64,000 nt of DNA from Dehalococcoidia bacterium (GCA_963668585.1 OY764869.1:1099106-1163105), one strand, 5' to 3'. Numbered from the stretch's first letter, positions 5,931-53,587 are shown. The notes: a model not told the origin generated them from the sequence alone. Translations and numbers: made by a program.

Positions 5931-7960
5931 GTACCGTTGGCGATGCGCTGGTGGAGCATGGCGGCGTTCATCAGCAACAGGGCGGCGATGGTGCAGCCAT
6001 CGGCTTGGCTCTTTCGATTGTCGTCCTTCAGGTTGTCCAGGCCGAAGTGGTGGTCAAGGGCAGGCTGGAGTTCGTCATTCCGCAAAGCGTGAGCGGCTTC
6101 CCGGACACTGGTTTCCAGGACGTTGAGGTCTCTGACCACGCGGTTGTCCACTAGGCCAGATTTGGCGAGGAGGTTCATGCGGATGGCGTTGCCCTCGTCT
6201 TCCAGCTCGCTGAGGCGCAACTGCATGGCAATGTCCGCGCGTTCCGCGCGGGTGGGCCGTTTCGTCTTCTCCTTGCTGGAAGGGATGCGTTGGCCTTCGC
6301 CCTTGTTGATCATGTTCCGCGCCTTGTCCTTGGACTTGCGGACGTCCACCTTGCCGCGGATCTCATTGGCGGAGGGCTTGGCGCGGACGACGGTATCCCT
6401 GCGTAGTTCGTTGCTGCCGTCTTCGTTCTTTTTGCCAGCGATTATTTGGGTCGGCTCGCTTGGCTGCGTCTGGTAGGGCTGTGCTCGAACATCTGCGATA
6501 TTTCTGTCGCCGTCACCAGCGCATTGCCCATCCGCGGTGGTTGCCAGTGGTTGAACGTTGACCACCGGCTCGGTTGATGCCGTTTCGGTGATGGGGCCAA
6601 ATTCTCTGGCTAGAGTGCTCTTGTCGTCGAGCACCCGCTCCACAGCAAGTTCCGCTTCTCCCGGAGCACCCTCGTGTTCGCGGTAGTGGATGCGCTTGCT
6701 CTCGCCACCGGTGGCGACGGCCACGATGGTGCGCAGCGATTCCGGCGTTTTAGGAATGTACAGGTGCAGCAGTTCGGACAGGTTTTCCTCGATGCGCTGG
6801 TCGTGGGCGCGTAGGGCCAGCAGTATCTGGCCTAGTTCCTGCCAGCCCTCTTCCATGTTGCTGGAGCTGAGCCAGCTCTCGGGGTCGGCGTTGGGCGGGA
6901 TGAGGATGGGGCAAATGATGTAGCCCATGTCCTTGCCATCGGTGACGCGCATGGCTCTGCCCACGGCTTGGATCACGTCGATGGGGCTCTTGCGAGCTTC
7001 CAGGAAGGCTACAGCGTTCAGCGTGGGCGAGTCTGTTCCTTCGCCGAAGATGCCGACATTGATGATGCCATAAGGGTGGTCTTCAGTGGATTCGGCCAGG
7101 AGGCGCTTGGCATTGTCGCGGGCGGACACGTTGCTGGTGGCGTCCAGGTGCTCCAGTGTGTAGTTGGCGGCAGTCTGTCCTTCTTGGTGGTCGTCGAGCC
7201 AGCCCTGGAGCCAGTTGCGTACGGCGGGAGTTTGGAGGGCGTCGGCCATGTTCTTGGACTTGTCCACGGTATTCATGAAAGCGATGCAGGACTTGATTGG
7301 TACGGTCCCCTCACCGCGTTGCTGCGTGGCCCCACCCATGGCCAATGAGAAGGCCAGCCCGCGCAGGAAGTGGGAAGAGGTGAGGGGATTGCGTCCTTTG
7401 CTCTGGGTTTGGCCGGCGAGGGTGTTGGCGATGCGGTATTCATCAGGGCCGTTGACGCCCACGGCGATAATGCGGTAGTCGGCCAACCATTCGTTCTTGA
7501 CGGCTTCCACGTAGCTCTTGCGGTACAGTTCTATGCCGAAAGTGCCTTCGTCGTCCATGCTGCGGACTATCCAGTCGCTGGTTTGGTCTTGGTTGACTCG
7601 GCTGGTGTCATAGATGCGCGGTGTGGCGGTCTGATAGACGCGGTAGGTGGCGGGGAAGGCGTGGTTGTCGTGGCACAACGTGAAGTCGCGGATGCGCTGC
7701 TCCTCTTGGGACATCTCGGCTTTTTTGGCTTTGCCCTTGCGTCGCAAGCCGGCGGTGCGGTGGGCCTCGTCGCAGACCAGGACTTTGGCCGAGACGCTGG
7801 CTTCTTGCAGTGCCTCGGCGATGCGGCTGCCGCTCTGGTAGGTGCCGAAGATCACGCTGACTTGATCGGCGTGTTGCCCGCCGCGGATCCAATCGGAGAT
7901 TTCCGTCGGGTTGGTGGTGACCTTGCCTTTGACCTCGGAAGCGCTGACGTTGCTGTTGTC
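5843..7960 (-). pseudogene. Type ISP restriction-modification enzyme, middle part (SF2 helicase-like translocase, DEAH box)
   Basis: Track ORF 5843..7855 contains VCDEAHRTAG and a helicase C-terminal region (...GEGTDSPTLNAV...QAVGRAMR...). The frame stays open upstream to the IS630 junction at 7960 (LDNSNVSASEVKGKVTTNPTEISDWIRGGQHADQVSVIFGTYQSG). Confidence 0.75.
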
Positions 7961-16011: not shown

Positions 16012-16129
16012 GGGACCAGCAACCCTCCGGCATTGCGGAAGTTGACATATCCCTTTATCATTGAAATTCAGGTTCGGGCCGCCGCGGCGCCTTGGCAATC
16101 CACGTCCGAACAATCCGAGGAGTATTCAA

Positions 16130-16555
16130 TTGGCTGACCAGCCCAGCGAAAAAGCCATCCAGCGGATGCGCCTGTTTGTCGAGCGTTACTGCGAAAAATC
16201 GGGTACCCACACCCACCCTGAAGAAGGGGTCGCAGAATCCGTAATCCTGGGCCTGGCCCAGAACGTGGATGAAATCGGCCGGCCGCTCTGCCCCTGCCGC
16301 TTCTATCCCAGCAAGGAAGAAGAGGTCAAGCATCGCACGTGGATTTGCGCCTGCGATGATATGCAGATCTACAAGTACTGCCATTGACTGCTCTTCGTAA
16401 CTGAGGGCGGTCTGCCCATCACCGAACATCTTCCCGAAGACCACGAAGGCCGCGCCATCTACGGCGAGGTGAAAGACCCGACGCCCGACAAGGGCCGGCC
16501 CCTGCGCCACAAGGCGGAGGAACGCGAACAGGAGCGCAGGGATCGACCTTCCTGA
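16130..16555 (+). CDS. ferredoxin:thioredoxin reductase catalytic subunit with an in-frame TGA (candidate selenocysteine) at 16385-16387
   Basis: The start is TTG at 16130, with a GAGGAG RBS upstream. The pattern CPC-x16-CAC-x8-CH[TGA]LLFVT matches the FTR CPC/CPC/CHC signature. The same frame continues to the TGA at 16553-16555. A hairpin lies at 16394-16426. Confidence 0.7.
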
Positions 16556-30926: not shown

Positions 30927-31949
30927 ATGAGTTACAAGGCAGAATACATTTGGATCGACGGTCAGCAGCCCACCGCCAAGATGCGGTCAAAGGCCAAGAT
31001 CGTTCCGGACGGCGAGGACCCGCCCGTCTGGGGATTCGACGGCTCCAGCACCAACCAGGCCCCCGGCGAAAACTCGGACTGCGTGCTGAACCCGGTGCTG
31101 ACGGTCCCGGACCCCATACGCGGCGGCAACCACAAGTTGGTGATGTGCGAAGTGCTGCTCACCGACATGTCGCCCCATCCGTCCAACACCCGCGCCGCCT
31201 GCGCCGCCGCCGCCGCCCAGTACGCCTCGATGGACTTCTGGTTCGGCATCGAGCAGGAGTACACCTTCTTCGACGGCATCAAGCCCCTGGGCTGGCCGGA
31301 CAACGGCTTCCCCGCCCCCCAGGGCGGTTACTACTGCGGCGTCGGCTCCGACGAGGTTTTCGGCCGCCCCGTGGTTGAGCAGCACATGGACGCCTGCCTG
31401 TATGCCGGCCTGGCGTTTTCCGGCATCAACGGCGAGGTAATGCCCGCCCAGTGGGAGTTCCAGATTGGCCCCATCGGCTCTCCGGCCGCCGGCGACCACC
31501 TGTGGCTTGCCCGCTGGCTCCTGTACCGCATCGGCGAGGACGTCCTGACCGTTGACGGACGCCGCGGCATCAGCGCCACCCTGGACCCCAAGCCGGTCAA
31601 GGGCGACTGGAACGGCGCCGGAGCCCACACCAACTTCTCCACCAACCGGATGCGGGAGAACTACGACGCATGCGTCGCCGCCGCACAGGCCCTTGAGACC
31701 CGCCACGACCTGCACATCGCCAACTACGGCGACCGCATCGAAGAGCGTCTCACCGGCCTCCACGAGACCTGCTCCTACCGCGAATTTCGCTATGGCGTGT
31801 CCGACCGGGGCGCCTCGGTTCGCATTCCGTGGCAGGTTGCCCGCGACGGCATGGGTTACATCGAAGACCGGCGTCCCAACGCCAACTGCGACCCCTACAC
31901 CGTGACCCGCCTGATCATCGAAACCGTGGGCGCTGCGGCTTCAGCCTAG
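30927..31949 (+). CDS. glnII: glutamine synthetase, type II
   Basis: 340-aa ORF whose N-terminus MSYKAEYIWIDGQQPTAKMRSKAKIV is characteristic of GSII. It also contains ...FGIEQEYTFF... and ...NGAGAHTNFS... Confidence 0.9.
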   Translation: MSYKAEYIWIDGQQPTAKMRSKAKIVPDGEDPPVWGFDGSSTNQAPGENSDCVLNPVLTVPDPIRGGNHKLVMCEVLLTDMSPHPSNTRAACAAAAAQYASMDFWFGIEQEYTFFDGIKPLGWPDNGFPAPQGGYYCGVGSDEVFGRPVVEQHMDACLYAGLAFSGINGEVMPAQWEFQIGPIGSPAAGDHLWLARWLLYRIGEDVLTVDGRRGISATLDPKPVKGDWNGAGAHTNFSTNRMRENYDACVAAAQALETRHDLHIANYGDRIEERLTGLHETCSYREFRYGVSDRGASVRIPWQVARDGMGYIEDRRPNANCDPYTVTRLIIETVGAAASA

Positions 31950-32151: not shown

Positions 32152-33216
32152 CTAGTCCCAGACCCTCACCAGTTTCTGCATCGAGCGAAGCTCGCGGGGC
32201 GGGTCCATGTGCCGGCCGTAGTCGGTCCAGGACACCTCCGCCACGTAAAGGTCGCCGTTGGAGTCGATGGCGATCCCGTGGGGAGAATAGAACCGGCCGG
32301 ACTGGTCGCCGTAGCTTTCGCGACCCACCCTGGCCAATACCTTGCCCCTGGTATTCATCACCGTTACGCGGGGGCCGAGGTCGGTGCCGATGTCGTTGGT
32401 GCCGATTCCGCAGAAGTATTCGCCGATGTAGATCAGTTCCTCGCCTGAGCGGTCGTCGATGCAGATGGCGGCGGCGCGCGACAGGTTGCCCCACTGCGTC
32501 TCGTACTTCCCGTCGGAACTGAATACCTGGATGCGATGGTTCTCGCGGTCGGCGATGTACACCCAGCCATCGTTGTCCACGATCACGTTGTGAACGATGT
32601 TGAACTGGCCGTCGCCGGTGCCCGATTCGCCCCATGAGAACAGGAGCCTGCCGTCCGGCGTGTACTTGTGGACCCTCGCGTTCGAGTACCCGTCGGCCAC
32701 GTAGAATTCCCCCGTGCGCTTGTCGAAGGCCACGTGGGCCGGCACGCAGAACGGGTCGCCGCTCATGCGGGGACTGGGCTGGTGCGGCGTGCCCATGGTC
32801 ATCAGCAGTTCGCCGTCCGGCGTGAACTTCCGCACCGTGCTGTCGCCGTTGTCCACGCAGAAGACGCTGCCGTCCGGCGCGATGGTCACGCCGTGCGGGT
32901 TGGCAAACACCCCTTCGCCCCAACTGCGCAGCAGGTTGCCCTCCGTGTCGAACACCAGCATCGGTATTGTCCCGCGATTGAACACGTACACCTGGTCATT
33001 GGCATCCACGGCCACGGCGGTGCCTTCCTGGTAAACGCACCCGTCGGGCAGATTGCCCCAGTTCTCGCCGGATACCCGGTAGTGAAAACCGTTCTCTCCG
33101 ATGACAACCGGCCCGACCCGTTCGCCGTCGGCGCCGTGCCCGTCAACGCGCAGGCCGTATTCCCAGTCCTGTTCCTTATCGATGTCCTGATCGATGTCCT
33201 GTTCCCTATCGACCAT
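32152..33216 (-). CDS. NHL-repeat beta-propeller protein
   Basis: The start is the ATG at 33214-33216, with a GAGGAGG RBS. The upstream part of the track ORF covers repeat copy 9. Repeated ...P.GV.I..DG.V.V.D... blades run throughout. Confidence 0.75.
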   Translation of the reverse strand: MVDREQDIDQDIDKEQDWEYGLRVDGHGADGERVGPVVIGENGFHYRVSGENWGNLPDGCVYQEGTAVAVDANDQVYVFNRGTIPMLVFDTEGNLLRSWGEGVFANPHGVTIAPDGSVFCVDNGDSTVRKFTPDGELLMTMGTPHQPSPRMSGDPFCVPAHVAFDKRTGEFYVADGYSNARVHKYTPDGRLLFSWGESGTGDGQFNIVHNVIVDNDGWVYIADRENHRIQVFSSDGKYETQWGNLSRAAAICIDDRSGEELIYIGEYFCGIGTNDIGTDLGPRVTVMNTRGKVLARVGRESYGDQSGRFYSPHGIAIDSNGDLYVAEVSWTDYGRHMDPPRELRSMQKLVRVWD

Positions 33217-33282
33217 ATTCCTGACCTCCTCGAATCCGCGCCGGCTTGGGCCGAGGCATGGTGGAAATATATCACGCGAGAT

Positions 33283-33421: not shown

Positions 33422-34999
33422 TCACTGGTCCTGGAAATAAACCTCGGTATCGGGATGGTATTGGAACCACCCGAACCAGAACGACGTGAGGCTGGGAATG
33501 CGCGCAAGTTGACGCGACGAGTCGGCGGCGTTGATCAGTCCTTCCTCGGTAACCGTCCACCGTTCGCCGGCGTTGTCCAGCAACGCGGTGGGCGGCAGGT
33601 TGTCATTGTCGCCATCCGCGGGGCCGAAGGTCAGATCGCCGCGCTCGTAGATGCGGCCGGCGCGGGATTCGGGAGAGGCCACCACCACCACGTTCATGCC
33701 GCCCACGGTGTCGTTGACGATGCGAACGTCCTGCAGGTCGCGCACCGCGTAGGCCTTCGCGGACTCCCCGACGGTGAGGCCGACCACCACCGCCTTGGGG
33801 TCGAAGGTCTCATCGCGCAGCCACACCGGGAACATCACCTGTCCCGACGTGAAGTAGGAGTAGTAGATCGCGCTGGGGTCGTCCTCGGGGACGTAGAACT
33901 CGGCCGGATAAATGCCGGTGTCCTGGGACAGCACCGTGGTGTCGGGGTGTTCGTCCACCCACTCGCCCCAGGTGGTCACCACGGATGGGAAGAAGGGCTG
34001 CCGGATGCCGGAATCGGCCAGCGGCCCGATCACCGGTTCGCCGATGAACTGGTTCCACAGTGACCGGGTGGCCCGGTCGTACATCACCTTGTTGCTGCGG
34101 TATAGCATCCCCGATGTCCCGAACGTGGTGGCTTCTCCGTTGACGATGCCGGAATACACGATTCCGGTGCCGCACAGGGTTCAATACACCAGGGATATTG
34201 GCTCGCCGCCCAGCGTGTCGTTGGCCAGTTCATGGGCGTTCATCACCCGCAGCGGGTAGGCCCGATGCTCGCCGTTTATCGAAACGCCGAACACCCGGTC
34301 ATCGGGCCACAGGTAGGTGGCCTGCTCGGGAAGAATGTACGGCGCGTGTTCCAGCGGAGGAATGCCGTCCAGCCGGACGCCGCCCCATACCACCTCGGTG
34401 AGGTTCACCCTGGAATGTTCGATGCCCGGTTCCAGCAGTGCGGCCATGTCCGGGTCTATCACCGCCAGGGCGTTGACCTTCCAGCGCCCGTAGTCCGAGG
34501 GCGGAGCGAACTCGGCTTCGCGCGCGCCCACCCATTCGCGCCAACGCCGCCGGTCAAAATCAAAGTCCTCTCCGGTGAGTTGCGTGAGGGCATAAACCGC
34601 GCTGCTGGCGACATCCAGGTTGAAGAACTTCATCGCCTCCAGGATCACGTAGGCCTGGGACTTGTCCTTGTGGAATATGGTGTCTTCCAGCCCGAGCAGG
34701 GAGTCGCCGTTGTCGTGCCCCAGTCCGTCCCAGATGCGGTACATGGTGCGGTTGGGGTCATAGGCCGGCTGCGAACCGGCGGGGGCGGTCGCGCCGGGCG
34801 ACGCGCCGGCAGACGTGGGGGTGGCGGCCGGCTCCGTTGACTCTGCAGCCGTGCCCGTCGTGGGCGATGGCGGTGGCGTCAATATGGACGATGCCGCGCG
34901 ATTCTCCGCAGGTTGGCCGCACGACAGCATGGCCGCCACGGCCAGCAGGACGACAACCCACGCGACGCCGCGCCGCGACACTATTTGCGCTGGACCCAT
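33422..34999 (-). CDS. DUF3179 domain lipoprotein with an in-frame TGA (candidate selenocysteine, UxxC) at 34181-34183
   Basis: Track ORFs 34181..34999 and 33422..34159 share a frame. Joined, they read ...EPISLVY[TGA]TLCGTGIVYSG...FGTSGMLYRSNKVMYDRATRSLWNQ, which matches the DUF3179 CPLC region. The lipobox-like N-terminus is ...AVAAMLSCGQ. A hairpin lies at 34149-34167. Confidence 0.7.
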
Positions 35000-35070
35000 C
35001 CCTGCCTCCGGGAACGACTGAACTCTAACCTGGGCCTGTACACAGAGTACGTCCGGCCGGCGGCAGAGGA

Positions 35071-45799: not shown

Positions 45800-48700
45800 T
45801 TAGGGCTCCTTGGTCTCCACGGTGAATATGTTGGAAGCGGTATTGCCCCTGGTGTAGATGTTCTCGCCGTCGGCCGTCAGGTCCTCGCCCACCCCGGTCA
45901 CCCGGTTCGCGGGCAGGCTGATGGTCACCGGTTGACCCAGCGTCGTCGGTTCGATGGTGATCACGTACACGCCACCGGAGGATACCTGGATGGCGGTAGC
46001 GCCGCCGTTGGTCACCTCGAAATCGGAGAGTTCCAGGTCCTTCACCGCCTCCACCATGACCCCTGACACTTCGGGGTCGGTTAGCTCGAGGTCGGAGCGG
46101 AACGTCCCGGTGGCCACCCGGTCGGGGTATGACTCCAGCTTGTGCGGCAGGAGGACGGCGGACAGTTTCGCGTTCAACGGAGAGTCATTCTTGTTTGGAG
46201 CCTGGGTCCTGAGCCGTGGCGATCTGGACAGCACGGTGTCGCCGCGGCGGATGCGCAGGTCATAGGTTAAAGGCGCGCCCCGGAAGATGTCGCCGTGCGA
46301 AAACTTGATGCAGGAGGTGTCCATGTCGGCGCACCGGACGTAGTTGTTCCCGCGCGCAATTATCTTCCAGCGTGGGGCAGGTTCCTGGACCGGCAGGTCG
46401 AAATCGACCGTCCATTCCCACAGGTACCGGCTTGACGCTTCTATGACCACGTCCGCATCGGTGGGCACAGCCCGCCCCAGGTCCCAGCAGATATCCAGGC
46501 GCGCCCTGCGGTCGATCACCTCGGCTCCGCACGCCCTGATCGTTTTAGTTTCGAGGCTTCCATCAACCTTGTGCCCCTCGAAAGTCGTGATGGACCCCTG
46601 CAGCCGGTAATGCAAGCTTGCCGAATGACCCGTGGAAGCATGCATGATCTTGCCGCCGTTCGCCATCAGTTGATCTTCGCGCAACTGGATGCCATCGCTG
46701 TCCCGGTCCCCGGCCTGCACGAGGTATGCGAACTCCAGCGTGCTGGTCCCCGAGCCGCCCACATAATGGAACTCCCGGTTTGCCACCGAGTTATCCGAGT
46801 CGCCCACCTCAATCAGGAGTCCTGGGTTACCGAAGGTGGTATCCACAACGACCTCCGTGTCGTACGTCACTGTGATTGTGATGGCGTCCCCTAACCCGTA
46901 CGTGTCCCCATTGTTTTTCGGTTCAGAAATTATGGATATACCATGAAGCCAAATAATTTGAGGAACCTGGTTGACCAGGTGCTTGGGGTCTGCATCCACC
47001 GCATCGTGGGCCAGATCAGCATCAAAGTCCGTGCCCTGCTGCTTGATCGTCCCGCCGTTCAGCATCAGGGAGTCGGCCGCGATTGCGATCCCTTCCTGGT
47101 CGTTGTCGCCGGCAGTAACGGTATAGGAGAAGGTGAGAGTCAGGTTGGTGGCGTCCACTGCCGAGTATTCGGCCCGCTTCACGGAGTCACCAATTGCAAC
47201 CTTGATGTACGGTGTACCGTCGGTTGTATCCACCACAACGGGCGCCCCGAATGTAACGGAGACCTCGATCACGTCGCCGGCAACATACACGTTATCGGCG
47301 CCGGCGTCGCTGGTGAACGCGACGCCGGTGACATCAGCCCAGATGCGGTCGATGGTGACCGTGTAGGTCTGAGTCATCAAACCCCTCTTGCTCACGCTGA
47401 TCGTGATCTCGTTGGCCCCTCGGGACAGGGCAACCTGGTGCCCGGCGGCGGCGGTGTCGGCGTCGGCAGGCAGGATGCTGGCGGTGGCGCCGGTTTCCGC
47501 CGTGACGCTCACGGTTGTTTCGGTGGTGTCCCGCCCGACCGTGGCCGTGTAGTCCACAACATCGGACGTGAACGCGGGCGACAGCGTGATGCCGGCCAGC
47601 GACAGGGCGGTGAGCGTGGCGCGCTCCTCGCTGTTGTGAACCAGGTGTCCGCCCTGGTCGGCCAACGCATCATGGGTCAGCAGGGCGTCGTCGCCGGTGG
47701 TGCGGTTCGTGATGGAACCGCCGTTCAGGGCAAGGGCGTCGGCCGCGATGGACACGCCGTTGGAGTCATCGTCGTCGAGAACCACGGTATAGGAGAAGGT
47801 CAGCGCCTTGCCGGCGGCGTCTGCGCTCGAATACTCTGCGTTGCGCGTTGTGGTCCCGATGGTGAGGGCCACGTGTGGCGTGCCCATGGTCGTATCAACC
47901 TGCACTGCCCTGTCGAAAGTGACCAGGACCTCGATGGCGTCGCCGGCCACGTAGGTGTCGTCGCTGACGGGGTCGCTGCCGAGCGCGATGCTCTCGATGC
48001 GGGGACGGTGATCCTCGAGTTGGAGTGGCGTCGATGAGGACAACGACAGCCGGTAACCGTCATGCTGGTTGGGCGTCCCGGGCACACTGGGGATTGTCGC
48101 CGTGGGGTTGCTTGACGCGCTGGCGGGCTCAACCGTCAGGATTGCGCTGGCCACTTCCCCGGCACGGATGGTGACGCCGGTGGCGCCGCCGGAGATGCTG
48201 GCGTCAGTTACAGTCAGGCGCAGCCACATATTGAAGGGCGCACCCTTTGGCGCAACGGCCCTGAACTGTAAAGTGCCCACGGATTCCAGGCCCACCGGCA
48301 GCAGGATCGGGTTCGTTGCATTGTTGCGCAGGTCAAGTTGGGTCAGCGGACTGCTCAGGTTGGCGAACATGCCATCGGGCAGTTCGTCAAGCTGGTTTTG
48401 GTGAAGGGACAATATTTCCAGGGCCGTCAGATCGTCAATAACACCGACCGGGAGTGAGGTCAGTTGGTTGCGGTCCAGGTGCAGACGCGTCAATGCCGAG
48501 AGGCCGTCAAAGACCCCAGCCGGGAGCCCGGTGAGCTCGTTGATCTCCAGCCAAAGGCTCGTCAGGCTGGTCAGACCATCAAACACATTCTCGGGCAACT
48601 CGGTGAGTCCGTTTGTTCCCAGTTCAAGTACCGACAACGATGACAGGCCGTTGAACAGGTCCTCCGGCAGTGTGGTGAACCGGTTTGCAACCAGGTAAAG

Positions 48701-51700
48701 CTCGGTCAGCGTGGGCACGGGCGCGAATATATCCTCCGGCAATTCGCCGTCGACGCCTTCAATTGTCAAGCGAGTGAGCGCCGGCAGTCCCGCAAAAATC
48801 CGGTTGGGCAAGCTGGTGAGGCGGTCCGGGGACGAGATGTCCAAAGCGGTCATGGCCGTCAGGCTGCTGAAGTCGTCCACCTTCAGTTCCGCTTCCTCTG
48901 TTGGCACGTACAGGTCAAGTATGGTGGACAGGTCCGCTGACGTGACGTCCGAGCAGTCCTGGGTCTCGGTCAATTCTTTGATCTCTGCCAATTCCTCGAG
49001 AATGGCAAGCTGCACCGTTCGCGTCCGGTCGCAGATGCCCAGGCCCTCGCCCACCAGGACGGTCGCCTCGTCCGACGGGTCGCTGGCGCCCTCCGAGTTG
49101 ACGGCCCTCACCTGGAAGAAGTGGGACACTCCGTTGGCAAGGCTTTCGACCGTGAAACCATCCTCGTTGTCCTCACCGACCGCGCTGTCGGCAATCGCGG
49201 TCCAGGCTTCGGGATAATCGGCATCGGATGATGACTTGTAGCGGTATTCGTGGCCGGTTACCGCCGGGAATGCCGCCGGCGTGGCCCACGCCAGAGTGGC
49301 CGCCTCATCCCCCGTCGTTGCCGTGAGGTTCGTGGGTTTGGAAGGGGGATCCATCGACTTGCTCACCGTGACGGTGTAGGTGACGGTGAGCCGCCCTGCC
49401 CTCATCACCTGAATTTCGATTGTGGCCGACTCCGTCGCCAGCGATACCTGGTGGCCGGCGGTGTTGCCATCGGCGTCGGCTGGCTCGATGCCGCCGATGT
49501 GCCCCACCAGCACCGTGGCGGTGACGGTGGTCTGCGTGACGGTCGGCCCGACCTCTGCCGTGTATTCGGTGGTCGCGGAATCGAACGCCGGTGCCAGCGT
49601 GGCGTCGCTCAGGTACAGGCTGTTGAGCTTGGCCCTGGGAGGATCCAGCCTGCCGTTCACCTTGTGCCCGATGATTTCGGGTTCGGCGTGGTTGAGGTCC
49701 GCGTCCCGCCCCGTGGTCTCGTGTTTGATGCTGCCGCCGTTGAGTCGCAGGCGGTTGGGCTCCAATGCGATGCCGGTGTTGTCCCGGTCGCCGGGCTGGA
49801 CCACGTATTGAAACTCCAGCGTGCTGCTTTCGGAACCCCCAACGTAGGACAGTTGTCGGGTCTCCAGAGTAATGCCGGGATGCCAGAAGTCCATCTCCAG
49901 GATCGGGATGCCGTCGGTGGTGTCCACCACCACTTTGGAATCGAAGGTGACGGTGAACGTGATGGTTTCGCCTTCGCCGTAGGTCTCGACGCCAGCCAGC
50001 GGTGAGGACATGATGGCAACGCCGTTGGCCACGATACTGGGTACCTTGTTGACGATGTGGCCGGCCTGGCTGGCAAGGGCGGAATGGTCGAGGACGGCAT
50101 CTGCGCCGCCCACCTGGGCCGTGATGGACCCGCCGTCCAGCGTCAACGCGTCGGCGGCGATGGAGATGCCGTCCTGGTCGCTGTCGTCCTCCACAACGGT
50201 GTAGGAGAAGGTCAGCACCTTGTTGGTGGCGTCGATGGAGGCGTAGGCAGCATTGCGGCTGTTATCGCCCACCGAGACGGCCACGTAGGGAGTGCCGTCC
50301 GTCGTGTCCACCGTCACGGGCCGGTTGAATGTCACCGCGACGCTGATCACGTCGCCGGTGGCATAGGTGCCGTCGGCGCCGGGGTCGCTGGAAATGGCGA
50401 CACTGTCCACCATGACCATGCCGATTTCCAGGGTTACCGTGTACTCGGTTGAGATCGTGGCCGTCCCGGATGCGGTGATGGTGATGACGGCGCCGTCGCT
50501 GACGGCCACCTGGTGTCCGGAGGCGCTGGAATCGGCATCGGCCGGCTGGATGCTGGCGGTATTGCCCGCCTGGACTGTGGCAGTGGCCGTGGTCTCGGTG
50601 ACGCCCGGGGCCACCACGGCGGTGTATTCGGTGATCGCGGGATCGAAGGCAGGCGACAGCGTGGCGTCGCTCAGGGACAGGGTGTTCAGTTCCGCGCGCG
50701 GCGGTGTCAGCCTGCCGTTCACCTTGTGCTCCCCTCCTCTGAAATTGGGGCGCGGGTGTTCGAGGTTAGCATCTCGGCCGGTGGTGGCGTGCTTGATGGA
50801 ACCGCCGTTCAGGCGCAGCCGGTTCTGCTTGATGGCGATGCCGGAGTTGTCCCGGTCCCCCTGCTGCACCACGTAATTGAACACCAGAGACCTGCTGCCG
50901 GAACCGGGGATAAATCCCAGCTCCTTGATCGCGAAGTTCCCGCCTGGATGCCAGAATTCCATCTCCAGGGTCGGGATGCCGTCGGTGGTGTCCACCACCA
51001 CGTCGGAATCGAAGGTGACGGTGAACGTGATGGTTTCGCCTTCGCCGTAGGTCTCGACGCCAGCCAGCGGTGAGGACATGATGGCAACGCCGTTTGACAC
51101 GATTCTGGGTACCTTGTTGACGATGTGGCCGGCCTGGCTGGCCAGGGCGGAATGGTCGAGGACGGCATCTGCGCCGCCCACCTGGGCCGTGATGGACCCG
51201 CCGTCCAGCGTCAACGCGTCGGCGGCGATGGAGATGCCGTCCTGGTCGCCGTCGTCCTCCACAACGGTGTAGGAGAATGTCAGTACCTTGCCGGTGGCGT
51301 CGATGCCGGTATAGGCGGCGTTGCGGAGATTGTCTCCCACCGAGACGGCCACGTAGGGAGTGCCATCCGTCGTGTCCACCGTCACGGGCCGGTTGAAGGT
51401 CACCGCGACGCTGATCACGTCGCCGGTGGCATAGGTGCCGTGGGCGCCGGGGTCGCTGGAAATGGCGACACTGTCCACCATGACCATGCCGATATCCAGG
51501 GTTACGGTGTACTCGGTCGAGATCTTGGCCGTCCCGGATGCGGTGATGGTGATGGCCGCGCCGTCGCTGACGGCCACCTGGTGTCCGGAGGCGCTGGAAT
51601 CGGAGTCGTCCGGCTGGATGCTGGCGGTATTGCCCGCCTGGACTGTGGCAGTGGCCGTGGTCTCGGTGACGCCCGGGGCCACCACGGCGGTGTATTCGGT

Positions 51701-53587
51701 GGTCGCGGGATCGAAGGCAGGCGACAGGGTGGCGTCGCTCAGGGACAGGGTGTTCAGTTCCGCGCGCGGCGGCGTCAGCCGGCCATCCACCTTGTGGTCC
51801 CCTCCAAAGACAGGGCGGGAGTGGTCGAGAACGGCATCGCGCCCCGTGGTGGCGTGTTGGATGCTGCCCCCTTTGAGTCGCAGCCGATTCCGCTTGACGA
51901 CGATGCCGGAGTTGTCCCGATCCCCCTGTTGGACTACGTACTCGAACTCCAGGGTCGTGCTGCCGGAACCGCGGACGAAGCCCATCTCCTTGATCGCGTA
52001 GTTCCCGCCTGGATGCCAGAACTCCATGGACAGGGTGGGTATCCCGTCGGTGGTGTCCACCACCACGTCGGAATCGAAGGTCACGGTGAACGTGATGGTC
52101 TCGCCCTTGCCGTAGGTGTCGCTATTAGCCAATGGCGTGGAGGTAATCTTCACGCCGCCGGTTACGATCTCGGGTACCTTGTTGACGATGTGGCCCGCCT
52201 GGCTGACCAGGGCGTCATGATCCAGGACGGCATCCGTACTGCTGGCCTGGCCCGTGATGGACCCGCCGTCCAGCGTCAACGCGTCGGCGGCGATGGAGAT
52301 GCCGTCCTGATCGCTGTCGTCCTCCACAACGGTGTAGGAGAATGTCAGTACCTTGCCGGTGGCGTCGATGCCGGTATAAGCGGCGTTGCGGAGATTGTCT
52401 CCCACCGAGATGCCCACATACGGGACGCCGTTGGTGGTGTCCACCGCGACTGAGACGTTGAAGGTTGCCGCGACGTTGATGACATCGGCGGTGGCGTAGG
52501 TGCCGTCGGCGCCGGGGTCGCTGGTGACGGCCACAGTGTCCACCACCGTACTGACCATGATGGTCACGGTGTACTGAGTGGGGAGTTTGCCCGCTTCCGC
52601 GACGGTGATGGTGATGACGGCGCCGTCGCTGACGGCCACCTGGTGTCCGGAGGCGCTGGAATCGGCATCGGCCGGCTGGATGCTGGCGGTATTGCCCGCC
52701 TGGACTGTGGCAGTGGCGGTAATCTCGGTGACGCCCGGGGCCACCACGGCGGTGTATTCGGTGGTGGCTGGGTCGAAGGCAGGCGACAGGGTGGCGTTGC
52801 TCAGGGACAGGCTGTTGAGTTCGGCCTTCGGCGGCTCCAGCCTGCCGTCCACCTTGTGCCTGTTGAGGTTGGGTTTCGCGTGGTCGAGGTTCGCGTCCCG
52901 CTCCGTGGTGTGGTGTTTGATGCTGCCCCCGTTGAGTCGCAGGCGGTTGGCCTCCACCGAGATACCGGTGTTGTCCCGGTCGCCGGCCTGGACCACGTAT
53001 TGAAACTCCAGCGTGTTGCTCCCGGAACCTCCGACGTAGGGCACTTCCCTGGTGTGTCCGGTGATGCCCGGATGCCAGAAATCCACCCCCAGGGTCGGGA
53101 TTCCGTCGGTGGTGTCCACCACCACGTCGGAATCGAAGGTCACGGTGAACGCGATGGTCTCACCCCTGCCGTAGGTGTCGGCAGCCGCCAGCGGGGACGA
53201 GATCACGGCGACACCGTCGGCAACGATGTTGGGAACCTCGTCCACTTGGCCCGACTGGCTGGCCGGAGCGTCGTGTTCCAGGTTCGCATCAACGCCGCTG
53301 GCCAGGCTCGTGATGGATCCGCCGCCCAGCGTGAACTCATCGGCGGCGATGGAGATGGCGTCTGCGCCCGGATCGCTGGTCAATCGCATCTCGGTGATGC
53401 CATCGCGCAGATTGACCTGGCGGCCCTCGTTGTTAAACGGGGCGGCCAGCCTGTCATCAATCTTGTGGCCGGGGTGGTGGCCAACGACAGGATGCTTTGG
53501 GATCGCGGGCAGGTCTCCGGAGACCTCCTCTGCCTGGTCAACGGTGCCGATCGGTTTCTGCGTCGATGCGGCCTGCGCGCCGGACAC
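45800..53587 (-). CDS. giant repeat protein: cadherin-like / Ig-like beta-sandwich modules, FN3, leucine-rich repeats
   Basis: 2595-aa ORF. Modules of about 355 aa repeat (...SDPGADGTYA.GDVI.VAVTF...; ...DTYG.GETITFTVTFDSDVVVDTTDGIPTL...; ...LSLSDATLSPAFDPATTEYTAVV...). One FN3 domain is present (PSKPTNLTATTGDEAATLAWA...). An LRR block reads (LTSLPNRIFAGLPALTRL...LTELPENVFDGLTSL...). Confidence 0.85.
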   Translation of the reverse strand: MSGAQAASTQKPIGTVDQAEEVSGDLPAIPKHPVVGHHPGHKIDDRLAAPFNNEGRQVNLRDGITEMRLTSDPGADAISIAADEFTLGGGSITSLASGVDANLEHDAPASQSGQVDEVPNIVADGVAVISSPLAAADTYGRGETIAFTVTFDSDVVVDTTDGIPTLGVDFWHPGITGHTREVPYVGGSGSNTLEFQYVVQAGDRDNTGISVEANRLRLNGGSIKHHTTERDANLDHAKPNLNRHKVDGRLEPPKAELNSLSLSNATLSPAFDPATTEYTAVVAPGVTEITATATVQAGNTASIQPADADSSASGHQVAVSDGAVITITVAEAGKLPTQYTVTIMVSTVVDTVAVTSDPGADGTYATADVINVAATFNVSVAVDTTNGVPYVGISVGDNLRNAAYTGIDATGKVLTFSYTVVEDDSDQDGISIAADALTLDGGSITGQASSTDAVLDHDALVSQAGHIVNKVPEIVTGGVKITSTPLANSDTYGKGETITFTVTFDSDVVVDTTDGIPTLSMEFWHPGGNYAIKEMGFVRGSGSTTLEFEYVVQQGDRDNSGIVVKRNRLRLKGGSIQHATTGRDAVLDHSRPVFGGDHKVDGRLTPPRAELNTLSLSDATLSPAFDPATTEYTAVVAPGVTETTATATVQAGNTASIQPDDSDSSASGHQVAVSDGAAITITASGTAKISTEYTVTLDIGMVMVDSVAISSDPGAHGTYATGDVISVAVTFNRPVTVDTTDGTPYVAVSVGDNLRNAAYTGIDATGKVLTFSYTVVEDDGDQDGISIAADALTLDGGSITAQVGGADAVLDHSALASQAGHIVNKVPRIVSNGVAIMSSPLAGVETYGEGETITFTVTFDSDVVVDTTDGIPTLEMEFWHPGGNFAIKELGFIPGSGSRSLVFNYVVQQGDRDNSGIAIKQNRLRLNGGSIKHATTGRDANLEHPRPNFRGGEHKVNGRLTPPRAELNTLSLSDATLSPAFDPAITEYTAVVAPGVTETTATATVQAGNTASIQPADADSSASGHQVAVSDGAVITITASGTATISTEYTVTLEIGMVMVDSVAISSDPGADGTYATGDVISVAVTFNRPVTVDTTDGTPYVAVSVGDNSRNAAYASIDATNKVLTFSYTVVEDDSDQDGISIAADALTLDGGSITAQVGGADAVLDHSALASQAGHIVNKVPSIVANGVAIMSSPLAGVETYGEGETITFTVTFDSKVVVDTTDGIPILEMDFWHPGITLETRQLSYVGGSESSTLEFQYVVQPGDRDNTGIALEPNRLRLNGGSIKHETTGRDADLNHAEPEIIGHKVNGRLDPPRAKLNSLYLSDATLAPAFDSATTEYTAEVGPTVTQTTVTATVLVGHIGGIEPADADGNTAGHQVSLATESATIEIQVMRAGRLTVTYTVTVSKSMDPPSKPTNLTATTGDEAATLAWATPAAFPAVTGHEYRYKSSSDADYPEAWTAIADSAVGEDNEDGFTVESLANGVSHFFQVRAVNSEGASDPSDEATVLVGEGLGICDRTRTVQLAILEELAEIKELTETQDCSDVTSADLSTILDLYVPTEEAELKVDDFSSLTAMTALDISSPDRLTSLPNRIFAGLPALTRLTIEGVDGELPEDIFAPVPTLTELYLVANRFTTLPEDLFNGLSSLSVLELGTNGLTELPENVFDGLTSLTSLWLEINELTGLPAGVFDGLSALTRLHLDRNQLTSLPVGVIDDLTALEILSLHQNQLDELPDGMFANLSSPLTQLDLRNNATNPILLPVGLESVGTLQFRAVAPKGAPFNMWLRLTVTDASISGGATGVTIRAGEVASAILTVEPASASSNPTATIPSVPGTPNQHDGYRLSLSSSTPLQLEDHRPRIESIALGSDPVSDDTYVAGDAIEVLVTFDRAVQVDTTMGTPHVALTIGTTTRNAEYSSADAAGKALTFSYTVVLDDDDSNGVSIAADALALNGGSITNRTTGDDALLTHDALADQGGHLVHNSEERATLTALSLAGITLSPAFTSDVVDYTATVGRDTTETTVSVTAETGATASILPADADTAAAGHQVALSRGANEITISVSKRGLMTQTYTVTIDRIWADVTGVAFTSDAGADNVYVAGDVIEVSVTFGAPVVVDTTDGTPYIKVAIGDSVKRAEYSAVDATNLTLTFSYTVTAGDNDQEGIAIAADSLMLNGGTIKQQGTDFDADLAHDAVDADPKHLVNQVPQIIWLHGISIISEPKNNGDTYGLGDAITITVTYDTEVVVDTTFGNPGLLIEVGDSDNSVANREFHYVGGSGTSTLEFAYLVQAGDRDSDGIQLREDQLMANGGKIMHASTGHSASLHYRLQGSITTFEGHKVDGSLETKTIRACGAEVIDRRARLDICWDLGRAVPTDADVVIEASSRYLWEWTVDFDLPVQEPAPRWKIIARGNNYVRCADMDTSCIKFSHGDIFRGAPLTYDLRIRRGDTVLSRSPRLRTQAPNKNDSPLNAKLSAVLLPHKLESYPDRVATGTFRSDLELTDPEVSGVMVEAVKDLELSDFEVTNGGATAIQVSSGGVYVITIEPTTLGQPVTISLPANRVTGVGEDLTADGENIYTRGNTASNIFTVETKEP
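49300..53350 (-). repeat. tandem in-gene DNA repeats of about 1.07 kb (about 4 units)
   Basis: The marker tgtccaccaccac recurs at 49921, 50989, 52054 and 53113, giving spacings of 1068, 1065 and 1059 bp. Shadow ORFs 50010..50204 and 51078..51272 are near-identical. Confidence 0.85.

Follow-up and report, generated by a model that had tools for sequence, protein, structure and literature searches.

A 64-kb stretch of genomic DNA from a Dehalococcoidia bacterium (Chloroflexota; 64,000 nt, OY764869.1:1099106-1163105, hereafter the window) carries, on its minus strand at positions 33422-34999, a single 525-codon frame whose sole internal stop is a TGA at 34181-34183. With this TGA taken as a terminator, the frame falls into two open reading frames (ORFs): one at 34181..34999 (−), which ends at the TGA, and one at 33422..34159 (−), which lies in the same frame and begins with a GTG at 34157-34159. 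As the first-pass annotation of this sequence had noticed, only the TGA and seven sense codons (ACC CTG TGC GGC ACC GGA ATC, encoding TLCGTGI) separate the two, and the joined frame translates as ...GGEPISLVY[TGA]TLCGTGIVYSG...FGTSGMLYRSNKVMYDRATRSLWNQ. Our analysis indicates, with a probability of roughly 0.92, that one gene, at 33422-34999 (−), encodes a 525-residue selenocysteine (Sec)-containing DUF3179 lipoprotein, and with similarly high confidence that the in-frame TGA is a genuine Sec codon, specifying residue 273.

The complete gene starts at an ATG (34997-34999) and ends at an ordinary TGA (33422-33424), and five nucleotides 5' of the ATG lies a putative Shine-Dalgarno sequence (GGAGG, 35005..35009, −). 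The GC content at third codon positions (GC3) of the joined frame is 0.77 and 0.87 in its two halves, and high GC3 is typical of real genes in the window. A scan around the gene found neither a promoter nor a terminator.

Protein family and the residue replaced by TGA

For the Pfam search, a Cys was put in place of the internal stop. The DUF3179 profile (PF11376) matched residues 211-518 (33446..34369, −) across the TGA, with an E-value of 3.9e-73 and 246.9 bits against a cutoff of 27; the match spans profile positions 2-292 of 292 and is above the gathering threshold. This alignment of the joined sequence, which the first-pass annotation had named as the check on its assignment of the protein to DUF3179, upholds that assignment.

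The closest relatives retrieved from a search of ~5.8 billion proteins (75-85% identity) are all 243-246 aa long, correspond to the post-stop piece only and share its GTG start; an exact look-up of the window's own protein returned no record. Relatives at ~61% identity are full-length (534-552 aa) and have in common with the window protein the lipobox, the linker and both the helical and the DUF3179 domains. Where the window reads ...SLVY[TGA]TLCGTG..., these full-length proteins read ...SLAYCTLCGAG..., and in alignments A5 and A6 the C-T-L-C motif shows a conservation of 90% or more. Since the full-length homologs show a Cys at the aligned position, the TGA (34181..34183, −) stands where the conserved CxxC motif has its first Cys. 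The position of the TGA within a CxxC had been predicted correctly, but the motif had been given as C-P-L-C, and the retrieved homologs read C-T-L-C.

Conservation of the in-frame TGA

The gene was compared across 80 loci from a one-genome-per-species collection, nearly all of them from Dehalococcoidia metagenome-assembled genomes (MAGs); Limnocylindria, Methylomirabilota, Rokubacteria and other groups contribute the few that remain. At the aligned codon, 74 of the 85 gene copies (window included) carry TGA, 10 carry TGC and one carries TGT, and TAA or TAG never occurs. Comparison of Cys with TGA among orthologs, which had been suggested as a check, therefore returned 73 further TGA copies, all in the same alignment column, together with 11 TGC/TGT copies and no other stop. 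This shared pattern is far beyond chance, and the TGA is kept while protein identity to the window drops to ~38%.

Ratios of nonsynonymous to synonymous substitution rates (dN/dS, Nei-Gojobori) range between 0.11 and 0.59 on both sides of the TGA, with the downstream side (0.11-0.41) usually being the more constrained half; these values point to purifying selection on both halves of the gene. In the stretch that leads from the TGA to the GTG "start", codons change synonymously only (ACC/ACG/ACT/ACA, CTG/CTC/CTT/TTG, TGC/TGT) and are therefore translated. TGA conservation and the constraint on both of its sides thus practically exclude a pseudogene, a sequencing error and a stop-and-restart gene pair.

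In the last of these possibilities, translation would stop at the TGA to yield a lipoprotein with the helical domain and a quarter of DUF3179, and would restart at the GTG (34157-34159) to yield the 245-aa remainder; both ORFs are indeed long and conserved, the GTG lies only seven codons past the TGA, and public gene calls read the locus in this way. We nevertheless regard two polypeptides as very improbable. Across the seven codons in between, the peptide T-L-C-G/N... is conserved, with the synonymous-only third-position changes noted above, and the Cys-form orthologs are single chains. The split would moreover cut through the beta-hairpin and the CxxC of one compact domain (predicted local distance difference test score, pLDDT, of 91 in the model described below), the downstream piece would have no signal peptide though its partner is exported, and no Shine-Dalgarno sequence precedes the GTG because an RNA hairpin occupies that sequence.

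Several genomes carry two TGA-containing DUF3179 paralogs: they were found at loci L009 (1216, 6733), L025 (460, 6676), L031 (2441, 6919) and L040 (6850, 8768), and loci L007 and L055, which lie on one chromosome, are counted among such genomes as well. The two paralogs are often less than 13 kb apart, and these pairs suggest an expansion of the DUF3179 family in Dehalococcoidia.

A SECIS-type hairpin downstream of the TGA

The hairpin in question, CCGGAAU-CGUGU-AUUCCGG (34149..34167, −), has the perfect 7-bp stem that the first-pass annotation had read in the sequence, and its first base is the 14th nucleotide after the TGA. Its 5-nt loop begins 20 nt after the UGA and has a G at loop position 2 (CGUGU), and the calculated folding energy of the hairpin by itself is -7.7 kcal/mol, that of the 60-nt region being -15.3 kcal/mol. 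The model of the bacterial selenocysteine insertion sequence (bSECIS) given in the Fig. 2 legend of PMC13188914 comprises an apical loop of 3-9 nt, an upper stem of 4-16 bp, a G in the first two loop positions, a UGA-to-loop distance of 16-37 nt and a minimum free energy of at most -7.5 kcal/mol, and the window hairpin satisfies these published values. An automated bSECIS test was passed by 53 of the 74 TGA forms, the window included, and by none of the 11 Cys forms.

Alignment A2 comprises 60 nt of every TGA copy, 74 in all. The SECIS core GGAAUCGUGUAUUCC hardly varies within the clade, synonymous sites included (GGA, AUC, GUG, UAU, UCC); Cys-form genes encode a similar peptide, G-I-A-Y-S/D, from other codons and have no hairpin. 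Covariation was observed at pair 18/34 (CG in 51 copies, UA in 11, AU in 1 and GC in 1), pair 20/32 (GC 64, CG 7), pair 21/31 (AU 60, GC 9, GU 4) and pair 17/35 (GC 16, CG 15). The observed covariation score was reached in 0 of 500 shuffles, and sliding the 3' arm by 1-3 columns lowered pairing from 79% to 23-56%. All six core pairs are present in 65 of the 74 TGA forms, and Cys forms have 1-5 of them. In one subclade (L044, L045, L047, L050, L056, L076 and L080) the helix is fully compensated, reading GCGCGAU-CGGGU-AUCGCGC. The check for a SECIS element in the region after the TGA, another of those suggested at the outset, thus gave a stem that both fits the published model and covaries.

Members of the compensated-helix subclade have their TGA at ~6715-6838, in a U-T-L-C-N motif, and carry a signal-anchor helix instead of a lipobox. 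A few kb upstream of the gene, this subclade also has a gene for a P-type heavy-metal ATPase and one that is glutaredoxin-like.

Decoding of the in-frame TGA

The genetic code is not reassigned in this organism, since TGA terminates 13 of the 26 most confident (high-GC3) long ORFs of the window, where it is the commonest ordinary stop, and also ends the DUF3179 gene itself. By the standard bacterial mechanism, the hairpin 13 nt past UGA-273 would act as a bacterial SECIS and would recruit SelB-GTP-Sec-tRNA(Sec), and the UGA would then be read as Sec and not as a stop. The Sec machinery is presumably present in this organism. Dehalococcoidia are documented as a selenoprotein-rich lineage (PMC13326102): in BSepDB, which catalogs selenoproteins only for genomes with at least two Sec-pathway genes, "Dehalococcoidia bacterium UBA1141" has 49 selenoprotein genes and another Dehalococcoidia MAG, named by a universally unique identifier (UUID), has 46 (PMC13326102). 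UBA1141 is the genome of one of the TGA-form loci in our comparison (L079).

Several observations weigh against Sec decoding at this site. In a search for the Sec machinery that covered the window and ~1 Mb of related loci, tRNA-Sec was found neither in the window (ARAGORN, Rfam), whose only tRNA is tRNA-Gly(CCC), nor in the 80 loci (ARAGORN), and motif searches of the window found no SelA, SelB or SelD signatures. Folded singly, the sequence gains no stability over its shuffled versions (z = 0), so that the RNA evidence comes from covariation and from the lack of change at synonymous sites. Most pairs of the stem hardly vary, and the conserved peptide GIVYS is encoded by sequence that overlaps the hairpin, so that protein constraint could account for part of the hairpin's conservation. 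In addition, 21 of the 74 TGA forms do not pass the automated SECIS test in its strict form, among them three loci (L069, L073 and L075) that keep the TGA with no hairpin in register, and the gene neighborhood gives no functional clue. The three loci probably use a different SECIS. They hold Limnocylindria, Methylomirabilota and Rokubacteria homologs (L069:6490, L073:6478 and L075:1591), in which other stem-loops are predicted.

Hairpin-stimulated read-through is known from other systems, and the UGA could in principle be read as Trp, Gly or Cys, through reassignment or through near-cognate read-through stimulated by the hairpin, with no involvement of selenium. That we infer the Sec machinery of this genome, and do not see it directly, also speaks for such a reading. 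Against it stand the role of TGA as the commonest terminator of the confident ORFs and as the end of the DUF3179 gene too, the strict alignment of the site with Cys within a UxxC motif, and the fit of the hairpin to the SelB-type bSECIS model; the family and the lineage are, moreover, entered as Sec users in published catalogs (PMC9312934, PMC13326102). We therefore consider insertion of a standard amino acid to have only a very small chance of being correct. Lowest in probability, and effectively refuted by the cross-species conservation, is a pseudogene created by a Cys(TGC/TGT)-to-TGA nonsense mutation or by an assembly or sequencing error: a single transversion would suffice, no Sec machinery was seen in the 64-kb window, and gene callers and GenBank records give the downstream part as a separate protein of 243-246 aa, but the TGA recurs in 73 independently assembled copies of other species and is never TAA or TAG, the frames are intact with a downstream dN/dS of 0.11-0.41, and the conserved covarying hairpin is found only with TGA forms.

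Further indirect support for Sec decoding comes from elsewhere in the window. A second TGA-for-Cys gene, at 16061-16555 (+), encodes a homolog of the ferredoxin-thioredoxin-reductase catalytic subunit (PF02943, E 5.3e-22). Its motifs read CPC...CAC...CH[TGA 16385-16387], the third being YCH[TGA]LLF, such that CHC becomes CHU, and its frame runs for 55 codons past this TGA. This is presumably the first candidate selenoprotein of the first-pass annotation, and the claim made there of two Cys-to-TGA genes ~18 kb apart is real at the sequence level. A generic scan for other TGA-joined ORF pairs was very noisy in this GC-rich window, and the ferredoxin-thioredoxin-reductase-like gene alone was picked, by eye.

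In about ten of the loci, a pyridoxal-phosphate (PLP) enzyme with a Pfam SelA match (PF03841) lies directly upstream of the DUF3179 Sec gene (e.g., L010:4559-5698, L029:4590-5822 and L032:4645-5778). This enzyme scores ~44 bits with TIGR00474, for which the cutoff is 268, and we rejected it as a SelA; it belongs with the "selA_rel" PLP lyases of the DgaE family (TIGR01437, ~206-225 bits, below the cutoff of 385).

Export, fold and gene context

The N-terminus of the protein, MGPAQIVSRRGVAWVVVLLAVAAMLSC27GQ, contains a predicted lipoprotein signal peptide (residues 1-27; 34919..34999, −), with RR in the n-region, a hydrophobic core and the lipobox A-M-L-S-C27 (RR...VAWVVVLLAVAAMLS-C27). A strict lipobox rule, requiring K/R in the n-region, an uncharged hydrophobic core and a lipobox, and written as a regular expression modeled on PROSITE PS51257, is satisfied by the window and by 61 of the 74 TGA forms. 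In nearly all of the other TGA forms, the N-terminus carries a lipobox of relaxed form, a signal peptide of the A-x-A type or a signal-anchor helix. Essentially all homologs thus appear to carry an export signal, which suggests that the DUF3179 domain, and hence the Sec, is extracytoplasmic, in agreement with what had been proposed from the lipoprotein-like N-terminus alone. The prelipoprotein would be exported via its N-terminal signal peptide and lipid-anchored at Cys27, and the helical and DUF3179 domains would then lie on the outer face of the cytoplasmic membrane.

A Pro/Thr/Ala-rich linker is followed by an N-terminal all-helical domain (approximately residues 80-205; 34385..34762, −), which is conserved in the full-length Cys homologs and has no Pfam family match. 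An AlphaFold2 (AF2) model of the full-length homolog P0017 places helices at H89-207, with low to moderate confidence. The DUF3179 domain itself has an internal duplication, consisting of a duplicated beta-beta-alpha-beta-beta module whose repeats 1 and 2 match each other in BLASTP of the two halves (E 6e-6). We modeled this domain with AF2 on a domain-only Cys homolog, P0131, using an 86-sequence alignment, and obtained a pLDDT of 90.9 and a predicted TM-score (pTM) of 0.90. In this model, C117-T-L-C120 lies between strands 110-117 and 122-127, and the C/U-T-L-C motif stands at the turn between two strands in repeat 1 only. By this model, the U273-T-L-C276 motif of the window protein (34172..34183, −) would form a beta-hairpin turn.

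Comparison of the P0131 model with 350,542 PDB chains gave no significant match (best E 0.08), and a sequence-profile search of the PDB with the DUF3179 protein gave no match. Membership in the thioredoxin-fold oxidoreductases was considered and rejected: the motif is placed between two beta-strands in the confident model (pLDDT 90.9, pTM 0.90), and no thioredoxin fold was matched in the PDB structure search or in Pfam. A redox function is possible despite the non-thioredoxin fold. The first AF2 model, of full-length P0017 from a shallow alignment, was poor (pLDDT 63) and gave matches to Rieske/NirD proteins, from which came the idea that the CxxC is a Rieske box II; we dropped it, the confident P0131 model having no significant PDB match. 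Weak but recurrent matches of ~100 residues to Rieske/NirD-type beta domains (PDB 3c0d, 4aiv, 5cxm and 1fqt) reach target-normalized TM-scores of 0.52-0.60 in model comparisons. With the confident model, however, these matches have E-values of 0.08-1 and probabilities of at most 0.54, and DUF3179 differs from these domains in having neither the CxH...CxxH ligand set nor any sequence similarity to them; we therefore rejected membership in this group as well, and the modeled likeness reflects at most a common beta-sandwich topology.

Gene neighborhoods showed no conserved partner, either in all-against-all ORF clustering or in a Pfam scan of 142 flanking genes. These 142 genes fall into 100 Pfam families, none of which is represented more than six times, and an ABC ATPase is a neighbor in 18 of 81 loci. 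In the window, an NHL-repeat beta-propeller gene lies directly downstream on the same strand (32152-33225, −), a neighbor also seen in 11 of 81 loci. Other features of the window include a GlnII-type glutamine synthetase gene at 30927-31949 (+) (NF041605, E 2.7e-173, above cutoff) and a very large ORF of 2595 aa at 45800-53587 (−), with a GC3 of 0.82.

Discussion

The gene described here is another member of a cataloged selenoprotein family, and represents neither a new family nor a new mechanism. Both PMC9312934 (2022) and PMC13188914 (2026) tabulate a selenoprotein family under the entry "DUF3179 domain-containing protein, pfam11376, UxxC/T", and the family is credited to Zhang & Gladyshev 2007 (NAR 35:4952, PMC1976440), from an Olavius algarvensis symbiont metagenome. 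U273-T-L-C276 corresponds, at the conserved CxxC, to the U-x-x-C/T motif listed for DUF3179 selenoproteins. As far as these catalog entries describe them, the known members and the window protein share the Pfam domain, the Sec position, a U-x-x-C with Cys homologs and a SECIS directly after the UGA. They differ in host, a Dehalococcoidia MAG as opposed to a deltaproteobacterial symbiont, which is not a difference in kind, and the lipobox, the extra N-terminal helical domain and the near-invariant SECIS core of the window protein are incremental additions to what those entries list.

Other cataloged selenoprotein families offer partial parallels. The thiol:disulfide interchange, DsbA-like and DsbG-like selenoproteins (UxxC/CxxU), as they appear in the tables, share with DUF3179 an inferred extracytoplasmic location, a Sec paired with a Cys two residues away and a likely selenenylsulfide redox chemistry. 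However, these families adopt the thioredoxin fold and carry the motif at the N-terminal end of a helix, whereas the DUF3179 model places it at a beta-hairpin turn of an all-beta duplicated module. The C-x-x-C-G "knuckle" of DUF3179 also resembles metal-binding knuckles. Metal-handling UxxC/UxxU selenoproteins (cation-transporting P-type ATPase, MerT-like, putative mercuric reductase and CobW-like, as tabulated in PMC9312934) similarly carry their UxxC on an exposed loop. DUF3179 differs from them in that no metal-binding domain was detected, the knuckle is single, and metal-related genes are not consistently adjacent. In addition, the UxxT variants of DUF3179 listed in the review tables (PMC9312934, PMC13188914) fit chelation poorly, and for this reason redox chemistry is favored over chelation.

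What is modestly new is descriptive: the lipoprotein and helical-domain architecture in Dehalococcoidia, the near-invariant SECIS core with its compensated variant, the presence of several paralogs in one genome, the internally duplicated domain with its orphan fold, and the way in which public records systematically split the gene. Such records (e.g., MXZ92497.1 and MYD48165.1; P0201 and the clusters of P0008, P0016, P0119 and P0023) hold only the downstream fragment of 243-246 aa, named "DUF3179 domain-containing protein". They represent a systematic mis-annotation of the clade, in which the gene in fact encodes a lipoprotein of ~525 aa that carries Sec at the conserved CxxC. NCBIfam has no model for the DUF3179 protein, and automated pipelines therefore keep splitting the gene. 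The 74 conserved TGAs, the SECIS core with its compensated variant and the hairpin-less Cys forms could be used for a covariance model or a hidden Markov model that annotates the whole clade.

The main value of the finding is accordingly one of annotation, and since the family is already in selenoprotein catalogs, current understanding is unchanged. It adds a well-supported selenoprotein that is predicted to be exported, and supports UGA-as-Sec decoding in a Dehalococcoidia genome. We found no characterization of DUF3179 function in the literature consulted. The U273-T-L-C276 motif, at the beta-hairpin turn of the first duplicated beta-module, would be the reactive center, with the Sec-Cys pair on an exposed knuckle most likely cycling between selenol/thiol and selenenylsulfide; as a second possibility, the knuckle would bind a soft metal or metalloid.

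A broader reading, which we hold to be speculative and rather unlikely, would see in DUF3179 a family of selenium-dependent, membrane-anchored extracytoplasmic enzymes, with a fold that has no solved relative and an amplification to several copies per genome among the marine and sponge-associated Dehalococcoidia, in which the Sec-Cys beta-hairpin knuckle performs a novel extracellular redox or metal(loid)-handling reaction. The recoding mechanism would not be new in that case either, but such an extracellular DUF3179 reaction, if it exists, would matter for the ecology of this abundant Dehalococcoidia lineage.

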